Assembly (NCBI GenBank): GCA_910586295.1
Contig: CAJUGE010000018.1
Location: 10,717-74,716, forward strand
Reading direction: 5' to 3'
DNA length: 64,000 bases
Source of the DNA: an uncultured Bacilli bacterium
GTDB taxonomy: Bacteria; Bacillota_I; Bacilli_A; RF39; UBA660
This document shows, piece by piece, positions 31,234 to 31,540 of the stretch. A program made the translations under genes and the position numbers. The notes beneath the pieces were generated by a model that worked only from the letters and a program-made list of their open reading frames with translations, did not search any database and was not told the DNA's origin. Within the stretch, counting starts at the first letter, position 1. The number at the start of each line of letters is the position of its first letter.

Positions 31234-31307
31234 AAATTATACTTTTTTTTCTATTGACTTCTGTTAATTAGTTTAATAAGATATATTCACTCGGAAGAAA
31301 AAGTGGC

Positions 31308-31379
31308 GATTCCGGCCTGTCTGTGAAACTATTAAAGTGAGTGATTCCGACTCTAACCGTGAAACTATAAAAGTAAAAC
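31308..31379 (+). ncRNA. Two tandem 35-nt repeats (GATTCCG-N8-GTGAAACTATwAAAGT) resembling a type III antitoxin (ToxI/antiQ-like) RNA array, followed by a terminator hairpin at 31376-31412
   Basis: Repeat units start at 31308 and 31343 (period 35); a stem aaactag/ctagttt plus T6 follows; a ToxN-like ORF lies immediately downstream. Confidence 0.4.
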
Positions 31380-31438
31380 TAGGGTTTATATTATTTTATA
31401 CTCTAGTTTTTTAGTTCCAAGTAGAGAGGAGAAAAAGT

Positions 31439-31540
31439 ATGGAAAATTTTAAATTAGTTAGAATCGATGAAGAATATTGTGATTATTTAAGAAAATTTGA
31501 TTCAAAAATTCCATTTAATTCTAATGAAAAGATGTTGTAA
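31439..31540 (+). pseudogene. Truncated ToxN/AbiQ-family (type III TA endoribonuclease toxin) N-terminal fragment, 33 aa
   Basis: MENFKLVRIDEEYCDYLRKFDSKIPFNSNEKML* matches the conserved ToxN/AbiQ N-terminus (F..I..EY..YL+.FD.K.P.NS.E). GAGAGGAG RBS; no room for the remaining ~130 aa before stp. Confidence 0.5.

Follow-up and report, generated by a model that had tools for sequence, protein, structure and literature searches.

Type III toxin-antitoxin loci of the ToxIN family are defined by a promoter, tandem repeats, a Rho-independent terminator and a toxin gene (PMC5086642). AbiQ/antiQ of Lactococcus lactis plasmid pSRQ900 (structure 4GLK) has a promoter, repeats of ~35 nucleotides (nt) in 2.8 copies, a terminator, and a gene for a ~170-amino acid (aa) endoribonuclease of the ToxN family (PMC5086642, PMC7781912). 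The cleavage sites are A^AAA for AbiQ and A^AAAA for ToxN of Bacillus thuringiensis (ToxN_Bt) (PMC7781912). The review that gives the definition makes no mention of orphan or pseudogenised type III loci; these terms are absent from its text (PMC5086642). Here we describe a locus of this kind, with a broken toxin gene (toxN), in 64,000 nt of chromosomal DNA from an uncultured gut Bacilli bacterium (contig CAJUGE010000018.1; the whole stretch that was analysed is called the window). What is new is one more decayed locus in an already known family.

A toxin-antitoxin cassette immediately upstream of stp

We found that the elements of a type III locus lie immediately 5' of the stp-pknB operon. A first-pass annotation, made from the sequence without database searches, had recognized the order repeat array, terminator, toxin as that of a type III system, and all of the elements that it described are present:

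31254-31616, + strand: type III ToxIN/AbiQ-family cassette (promoter-like site, two repeats, hairpin plus T6, ribosome binding site, broken toxN)
31254-31282, + strand: promoter-like site, TTGACT, 17-nt spacer, TAAGAT (consensus scan)
31300-31337, + strand: ToxI/antiQ-like unit 1 (Tandem Repeats Finder [TRF]; pairings read directly against the family structure)
31335-31373, + strand: ToxI/antiQ-like unit 2 (TRF; covariance model R1)
31375-31412, + strand: intrinsic terminator between array and toxN (stem 31375-31385 / 31400-31410, T6 31407-31412)
31424-31431, + strand: ribosome binding site GAGAGGAG, 7 nt before the toxN ATG at 31439 (read directly)
31439-31540, + strand: toxN 5' remnant, a 33-codon open reading frame (ORF), MENFKLVRIDEEYCDYLRKFDSKIPFNSNEKML, then a stop codon (Pfam, tblastn, alignment with intact toxins)
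31526-31537, + strand: deletion junction with microhomology, GAAAAGATGTTG (segment mapping against the related locus L195)
31530-31598, + strand: toxN 3' remnant in the +1 frame, RCCNFKLLESKCDEYNKQMISN, 22 codons plus the original stop codon (Pfam)
31575-31616, + strand: hairpin plus T-run overlapping the toxN stop codon (inverted repeat; -11.6 kcal/mol, z = -3.0)

The layout, the toxin family and the RNA fold of this locus match the published definition of the ToxIN family (PMC5086642). We consider it very probable that the cassette is a recently inactivated chromosomal relic of a type III toxin-antitoxin (abortive-infection) system of the ToxIN/AbiQ family. Judged from its sequence, the locus is a member of this family by descent that is in a pseudogene state, and not a working member.

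The window cassette shares the layout of AbiQ/antiQ, and its units meet at A-rich sequence that resembles the AbiQ cleavage site. Unlike AbiQ, the window toxin lacks the central ~115 codons and is frameshifted, and the locus is on the chromosome by stp in a gut bacterium, whereas AbiQ is on a dairy plasmid. P0003, the toxin of an intact relative (see below), is only distantly similar to AbiQ (E = 1e-11). Its best match among the solved structures is ToxN_Bt (4ATO; E = 5e-25), and it also matches ToxN of Pectobacterium atrosepticum (ToxN_Pa; 2XD0). The ToxIN systems of B. thuringiensis (pAW63) and P. atrosepticum (pECA1039) belong to the same Pfam family, PF13958, as the window remnants, and RCCNFKLLESKCDEYNK in the window C-terminal remnant resembles VCCDFTKLEEKCQEYK in the B. 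thuringiensis toxin. The antitoxin units of these two systems and of the window family are alike in being pseudoknotted and 34-36 nt long. However, the repeat sequence is different (no Rfam match; R1 gives the B. thuringiensis locus only 17 bits), there are 2 copies in the window versus 2.9 and 5.5 in B. thuringiensis and P. atrosepticum, and the window toxin, unlike theirs, is predicted to be non-functional. The window array also resembles the pseudo-ToxI of phage TE, a ToxI-like array without a functional cognate toxin gene beside it (PMC5086642). The phage copy has been expanded and selected as a viral mimic that lets the phage escape ToxIN, whereas the window array appears to have been left behind when the toxin of a resident cassette decayed in situ.

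Both ends of toxN survive an internal deletion

We found that the 33-codon ORF encodes the N-terminus of a ToxN/AbiQ toxin. The ORF, with a ribosome binding site before it, is exactly as the first-pass annotation had quoted it. Its product matches positions 2-28 of the 159 positions of the Pfam profile PF13958 (ToxN_toxin; E = 1.8e-5; 25.4 bits, with a cut-off of 25). When the stub was compared to PLSDB plasmids by tblastn, 45/45 matches fell on the first ~30 codons of annotated ToxN/AbiQ genes, from Bacillus, Lactococcus and Haemophilus. These results bear out the earlier identification of the stub. Codons 1-31 are ancestral, possibly also those up to 33.

The toxin had been thought to be cut down to this 5' stub. 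We found instead an internal deletion of ~350 nt that spared the last 22 codons and the toxN terminator. A homologue search with the 33-aa stub padded with X residues recovered two strain variants only. One of these, P0002 (MENFKLVRIDEEYCDYLRKYDNNFKLLESKCDEYNKQMISN), joins the stub to a peptide whose coding sequence is in the +1 frame in the window, and this fusion pointed to the C-terminal remnant. The +1-frame peptide, which closes with KRCCNFKLLESKCDEYNKQMISN and a stop codon, ends at 31598. The 3' remnant matches positions 139-159 of PF13958 (E = 0.0018), is 82% identical to the C-terminus of intact P0003, and agrees with L195 at 21 of 22 residues. Joined together, the N- and C-terminal remnants scored 33.9 bits against PF13958 (E = 4.4e-8). 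A search of the remnants against NCBIfam gave no match.

The lesion is a microhomology-mediated internal deletion between short direct repeats, accompanied by a frameshift. The junction GAAAAGATGTTG resembles both a 5' site, GAAAAAATGCTG (codons E-K-M-L), and a 3' site, AAAGAGATGTTG (codons K-R-C-C), of the L195 toxN; the two sites are read at L195 3018-3029 and 3372-3385. The deletion is ~356 nt long when measured against L195 and ~350 nt when measured against the intact locus L101, neither of which is a multiple of 3, and the stop codon of the 33-codon ORF was created by the frameshift at the junction. Profile positions ~29-138 (the central ~115 codons) were removed, including YFAPLSSPKxKH and GxxNFNNM(I/L)P, two motifs that are invariant among ten intact homologues. 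Only the two ends of a ToxN/AbiQ endoribonuclease gene (PF13958, ~160-190 aa when intact) survive, and with the catalytic core deleted the locus would not be expected to be toxic. No other toxN was found in the 64-kb window by tblastn. For annotation, the 33-aa 'gene' that is called in many assemblies is better marked as a toxN pseudogene fragment.

The signals that surround the coding remnants are largely recognizable. The candidate for a single promoter upstream of the array, which would have driven both genes, is the TTGACT-17-TAAGAT site only; its -35 sequence TTGACT and its placement relative to the first repeat are common to L195-L200, L027, L025 and L098. The hairpin and T6 that had been reported after the repeats are present. 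The hairpin (-11.3 kcal/mol, z = -4.27) was more stable than every one of 200 shuffled sequences (0/200 as stable), and its stem, ACTAG(A/G)G...CTCTAGT, is conserved across homologous loci. A simple terminator scanner did not pick it up because the stem is AT-rich. The ribosome binding site GAGAGGAG is conserved in L195. The second hairpin (31575-31616), which has an equivalent after the toxN stop codon in L101 and L195, is likely the original toxN terminator, 5' of the stp promoter region.

The repeats belong to a family of pseudoknotted RNAs

We found that the tandem repeats had been described correctly except for their spacing. GATTCCG is at 31308 and 31343, and GTGAAACTAT(T/A)AAAGT is at 31323 and 31359. 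The spacer between these motifs, reported as 8 nt, is 8 nt in copy 1 but 9 nt in copy 2, and with this 1-nt indel the period measures 35 or 36, according to the landmark chosen. TRF reported a single array (31299-31374; period 36, 2.2 copies, 78% matches, score 94). The array begins at the leader A-tract, so that three AAAG boundaries enclose two units. By itself, the array is only moderately unlikely by chance: 2 of 100 first-order Markov simulations of a 64-kb sequence gave an array of period 25-45 with a score of at least 94, and the window contains 4 tandem arrays, including this one, that score at least 60.

To determine how the units fold, we relied on covariation among homologous units. 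Minimum free energy folds of single units had z near 0 and were no better than shuffles, as expected for protein-stabilised pseudoknots; the method is blind to pseudoknots and was replaced. Arrays were sought upstream of 80 metagenomic toxN homologues that are 48-62% identical to P0003, and 116 distinct units from 80 intact homologous loci were aligned in 47 columns. In the family fold, helix 1 flanks a loop of 6-7 nt, and helix 2 pairs this loop with a downstream GGAA-like tract. Approximately 84% (83.6%) of cells in the alignment were paired, compared to 20-55% in slid controls. Cells in which both partners had changed numbered 92, versus 27 ± 4 after shuffling, and 0/500 shuffles reached the observed number. 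For example, pair 7-19 is GC in 93 units, AU in 23 and unpaired in 0, and pair 13-34 is UA in 77, CG in 18, GC in 15 and unpaired in 2. At the level of the family, the predicted two-helix pseudoknot is thus strongly supported by covariation.

Both units in the window are able to form both helices of the pseudoknot. In unit 1, helix 1 pairs GGC (31305-31307) with GCC (31315-31317) around the loop GAUUCCG, and helix 2 pairs U31310-G31314 with U31322, G31323 and G31325-A31327, leaving U31324 bulged. In unit 2, helix 1 pairs GAGU (31339-31342) with ACUC (31350-31353) around the same loop, and helix 2 pairs U31345-G31349 with C31358, G31359 and G31361-A31363, leaving U31360 bulged. Helix 1 differs between the two units by compensatory changes (GGC/GCC versus GAGU/ACUC), and helix 2 is UUCCG with (U/C)G-u-GAA, with one bulged U, in both. 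The same bulged variant is seen in intact arrays, namely in the third units of L105 and L109. The window units alternate the two unit types of the four-unit array of L195.

A covariance model of the family, R1, ranked unit 2 as the top match over the whole window (both strands, filters off; 26.9 bits, E = 8.6e-4), within the range of units from an intact array (17-27 bits in L101). Unit 1, searched alone, gave a weak 14.4 bits. R1 also found the units of L025, L027, L098, L101 and L104, and it matched repeats 5' of an annotated lactococcal ToxN/AbiQ toxin on pCV56A (32.4 and 27.5 bits). Together with the covariation, the rank of unit 2 upholds the suggestion that the repeat folds as a ToxI-like pseudoknot. 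Rfam gave no match at gathering thresholds over the whole window, and only spurious sub-threshold matches for 31100-31800 at E up to 10. These results add covariation-backed evidence of a pseudoknot for a large, mostly metagenomic family of AbiQ-like antitoxins outside Rfam.

The number of units in the window is not exceptional, although the array had been called short. Among 82 loci scanned (the 80 metagenomic loci, L098 and L101), the search pattern found units in 72, with three units in 41 loci and two in 22 (22/72). The A-tracts at the window unit boundaries are short. They contain 3 and 4 A residues (the 3' A-tract of unit 1 is AAA only), versus at least 5 in 110/116 (95%) of the family units. 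By analogy with AbiQ and ToxN_Bt, the boundary A-tracts may be toxin processing sites.

A leader hairpin (ACATAAGnnATTATGT) that is conserved upstream of most arrays of the family is absent from the window. In many loci a small hairpin, ACATAAG(n)GATTATGT, is conserved between the promoter and the first repeat and is often followed by further palindromes (e.g., in L105, L109, L123, L154, L176 and L182; L101 14-32; L027 3566-3584). The corresponding window leader, 31283-31299, lacks it. The hairpin could serve as a 5' stabiliser or a processing signal.

We also scanned viral contigs with the window repeat pattern. Four single matches were obtained and rejected as chance; three were in an identical GC-rich, coding-looking stretch and one was in a moderately AT-rich contig.

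Related loci show the cassette intact and in several states of decay

The stub and the gene order around it, rpsB-tsf-p201-stub-stp-pknB-rsgA-rpe, are identical across many metagenome assemblies, and strains hardly vary here. The upstream neighbour, p201, is a 201-aa membrane-anchored ORF (30628-31233) just 3' of tsf, and the downstream neighbour is stp (31731-32492). The locus had been placed between tsf and stp; it does adjoin stp, but p201 intervenes on the tsf side. Loci in relatives, which are uncultured gut Bacilli, have the following forms:

L101-L103 (same species as L026): intact, with three units, a terminator and a 170-aa ToxN (P0003), 123 nt upstream of stp
L195/L196: identical synteny, rpsB-tsf-p201-cassette-stp, with p201 82% identical and four units
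L025: 3+1 units, with the promoter duplicated; toxN of full length, interrupted by one in-frame TAA
L098/L099: an intact ToxIN (toxin P0004), a Ku-LigD island, then, adjoining stp, a second cassette in which two units precede a 5'-truncated toxN
L104 (a strain of the same species as the window): remnant shortened by another deletion, of 34 nt
L197-L200: the same promoter and first unit as the window; the contigs break inside the array
L027: one unit and a terminator, with no trace of a toxin
L023, L024 and L201: cassette absent; between p201 and stp there is only the counterpart of window 31600-31730

Intact homologous loci thus exist at the same position in relatives, as the first-pass annotation had anticipated: in L101-L103 the complete toxN and its three repeats are directly 5' of stp. 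Longer versions of the window cassette exist as well, with a near full-length toxN in L195/L196. There, toxN has a 159-codon open body that ends KRCCDFKLLESKCDEYNKQMISN before its stop codon, the start codon is out of frame via 5' indels, and the invariant SSPK motif has a P-to-L change.

We found that the toxin has been struck by at least five independent lesions in this clade while arrays persisted. Arrays accompany an inactivated toxN in the window, L195, L025 and the second cassette of L098 (L098b), and in L027 an array is left without any toxin. The state of the window locus, which had been called unusual, is indeed decayed, but the clade shows at least five different states of decay, of which this is one. 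The series, all of it at a single chromosomal site, runs through an intact cassette, a nonsense codon, 5' indels, a 5' truncation, an internal deletion, loss of the toxin and loss of the cassette. Within it the RNA antitoxin consistently outlasts the toxin, which fits the forced order of loss expected for toxin-antitoxin systems. The toxin would die first because loss of the antitoxin with a live toxin would be lethal, and this order would account for the longer survival of the arrays in several sister lineages. That toxin-antitoxin systems become pseudogenes is in general unsurprising. The series also offers natural variants for asking how many units, and which, suffice to neutralise ToxN.

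Several of these loci have features of their own. In L025 (2920-3290) a promoter, three units and a terminator are followed by a second promoter and leader copy, one unit and a terminator, and then by toxN. L098 (3780-8400), like L099, has a nonhomologous end-joining island of Ku and LigD (ligase and primase-polymerase) between two ToxIN cassettes, the upstream, intact one with three units; this arrangement suggests that the stp-proximal ToxIN site is a hotspot of insertion or recombination. In L197-L200, four independent Logan assemblies end inside the second ToxI unit, ~117 nt after p201. Short-read assemblies tend to fragment at these arrays, and metagenome assemblies probably recover too few type III loci as a result. 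Six viral contigs from IMG/VR (L189-L194) carry ToxN homologues with 38-46% identity to the toxins of the clade, which indicates that the family is occasionally phage-borne.

Copies of an 11-nt direct repeat at 31264 and 31648, which flank the cassette, might mark an excision. We rejected this possibility because relatives that are free of the cassette keep sequence homologous to 31610-31647, which such an excision would remove.

Recent relic or retained array

The history that we favor for the window locus starts from an intact ancestor, as reconstructed from the family. One promoter would have transcribed a tandem array of ~36-nt units, and a leaky terminator would have passed a minority of transcripts into toxN. 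The ToxN endoribonuclease would have cut the array at the A-rich unit boundaries, and each pseudoknotted unit would have bound ToxN and kept it inactive. Phage infection would have halted transcription, the RNA would have decayed, and the toxin would have been freed. The ~350-nt deletion then shifted the frame, leaving the 33-codon 5' ORF and the 22-codon 3' fragment together with the putative antitoxin promoter, two units, both terminators and the ribosome binding site. Transcription of the array probably continues and would yield an unprocessed RNA of about 120 nt. With no partner toxin at the locus, it would be a decaying relic.

To evaluate how recently the locus was inactivated, we compared the window to L195. 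At 4-fold degenerate sites of the flanking genes, 35.9% (153/426) differ. The array has diverged by only 4.1%, the toxN C-terminal remnant by 6.0%, the terminator and ribosome binding site by 11%, the promoter and leader by 17%, and the N-terminal remnant by 22% plus indels. The dead C-terminal remnant is about as conserved as the array, and the simplest reading is that array and toxin were long under joint selection and that the inactivations are recent and independent. For the same reason, this comparison does not separate a selected orphan array from a recent relic. Within the window's species, the context of the stub has 3 variable sites in 497 nt across 15 contigs, too few for a polymorphism test of constraint.

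The alternative that survives best, although we think it unlikely, is that the toxin is dead and the array is kept by selection as a stand-alone RNA that neutralises ToxN from plasmids or phages (anti-addiction, or immunity) or from a paralogous chromosomal locus. The promoter-like site and the terminator are undamaged, as are the two helices of each unit. Arrays persist by dead or missing toxins in at least four lineages (those of the window, L195, L025 and L098b), plus L027, and in L098/L099 a second, intact ToxIN is only 4 kb away. In phage TE, an orphan pseudo-ToxI is known to act against the toxin (PMC5086642). The low divergence of the array relative to 4-fold sites also fits this alternative; however, the C-terminal remnant is nearly as conserved, and the low divergence is therefore explained by long joint selection before recent, independent inactivations. 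Moreover, unit 1 is degenerate, both boundary A-tracts are eroded into the lowest 5% of the family, and the leader hairpin of most arrays is missing; we take these as signs of relaxed constraint on the window array. The closest species representatives lack the whole cassette, and the window holds no second toxN.

Extended to the clade, the same idea would be that, in these reduced-genome gut Bacilli, a vertically inherited ToxIN by stp-pknB repeatedly loses its toxin but retains a ToxI array with its promoter, and the orphan arrays are kept as an RNA 'immunity' against ToxN from incoming plasmids or phages or from a paralogous cassette. We regard this, too, as improbable. If true, the orphan arrays would be a bacterial counterpart of the phage pseudo-ToxI decoys.

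No observation is in conflict with a relic, but some can be read in another way. The distribution is patchy, and the absence of the cassette from L023 and L024, the closest species representatives, could reflect gain and not loss. The gap between 4.1% divergence in the array and 35.9% at 4-fold sites could mean continuing selection on an orphan array instead of recent inactivation. Finally, an intact toxN paralogue elsewhere in the genome is possible, as the toxN search covered the 64-kb window only.

Other explanations of the locus

It is very unlikely that the repeats and hairpin are a cis-regulatory leader, attenuator- or riboswitch-like, of the stp-pknB-rsgA operon, with the similarity of the ORF to ToxN incidental. 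The element is on the same strand as stp and 320 nt upstream of it, it contains two terminator hairpins, and the cassette remains linked to stp across a synteny break. However, a consensus scan found that stp has a promoter-like site of its own (31662-31689) 3' of the cassette, and only that segment is kept in L023, L024 and L201. The element has no Rfam match, and the same repeats precede toxN in 80 unrelated contexts. Both ends of toxN are recognizable, and the intact homologous loci effectively refute a leader.

We give equally little credence to the 33-aa ORF being a functional small protein, e.g., an N-terminal fragment of ToxN with a new role. Its ribosome binding site and start codon are intact, and at least 152 assembly blocks have a gene call with the identical 33-aa product, but this identity reflects the very low strain diversity described above. 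Variants carry P25S or a further deletion altering the C-terminus, the homologous segment in L195 is scrambled by indels, and the stop codon is a by-product of the frameshift.

A chance tandem repeat next to a chance short ORF in AT-rich intergenic DNA, for which the 2/100 simulated windows with a comparable array and the single-unit folds with z near 0 might speak, is the least credible explanation of all and is refuted by the Pfam matches to both toxin ends, the syntenic intact homologues, the covariance-model match and the conserved terminator sequence.

Other observations in the window

The upstream neighbour p201 carries a membrane anchor at its N-terminus; its only Pfam match, to the thioredoxin-like HyaE, is weak (E = 0.0045). 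It is restricted to a small clade of relatives and is fast-evolving, with 63-82% identity in relatives whose stp is 97-98% identical.

Farther downstream (46547-48604), the window encodes a 685-aa membrane-anchored protein with many Cys-containing repeats of the form CPNGG(T/E)L..G.C. The repeats are encoded by a 90/180-nt tandem DNA repeat (47207-47547; TRF score 240-413), and the protein looks like a surface repeat protein.

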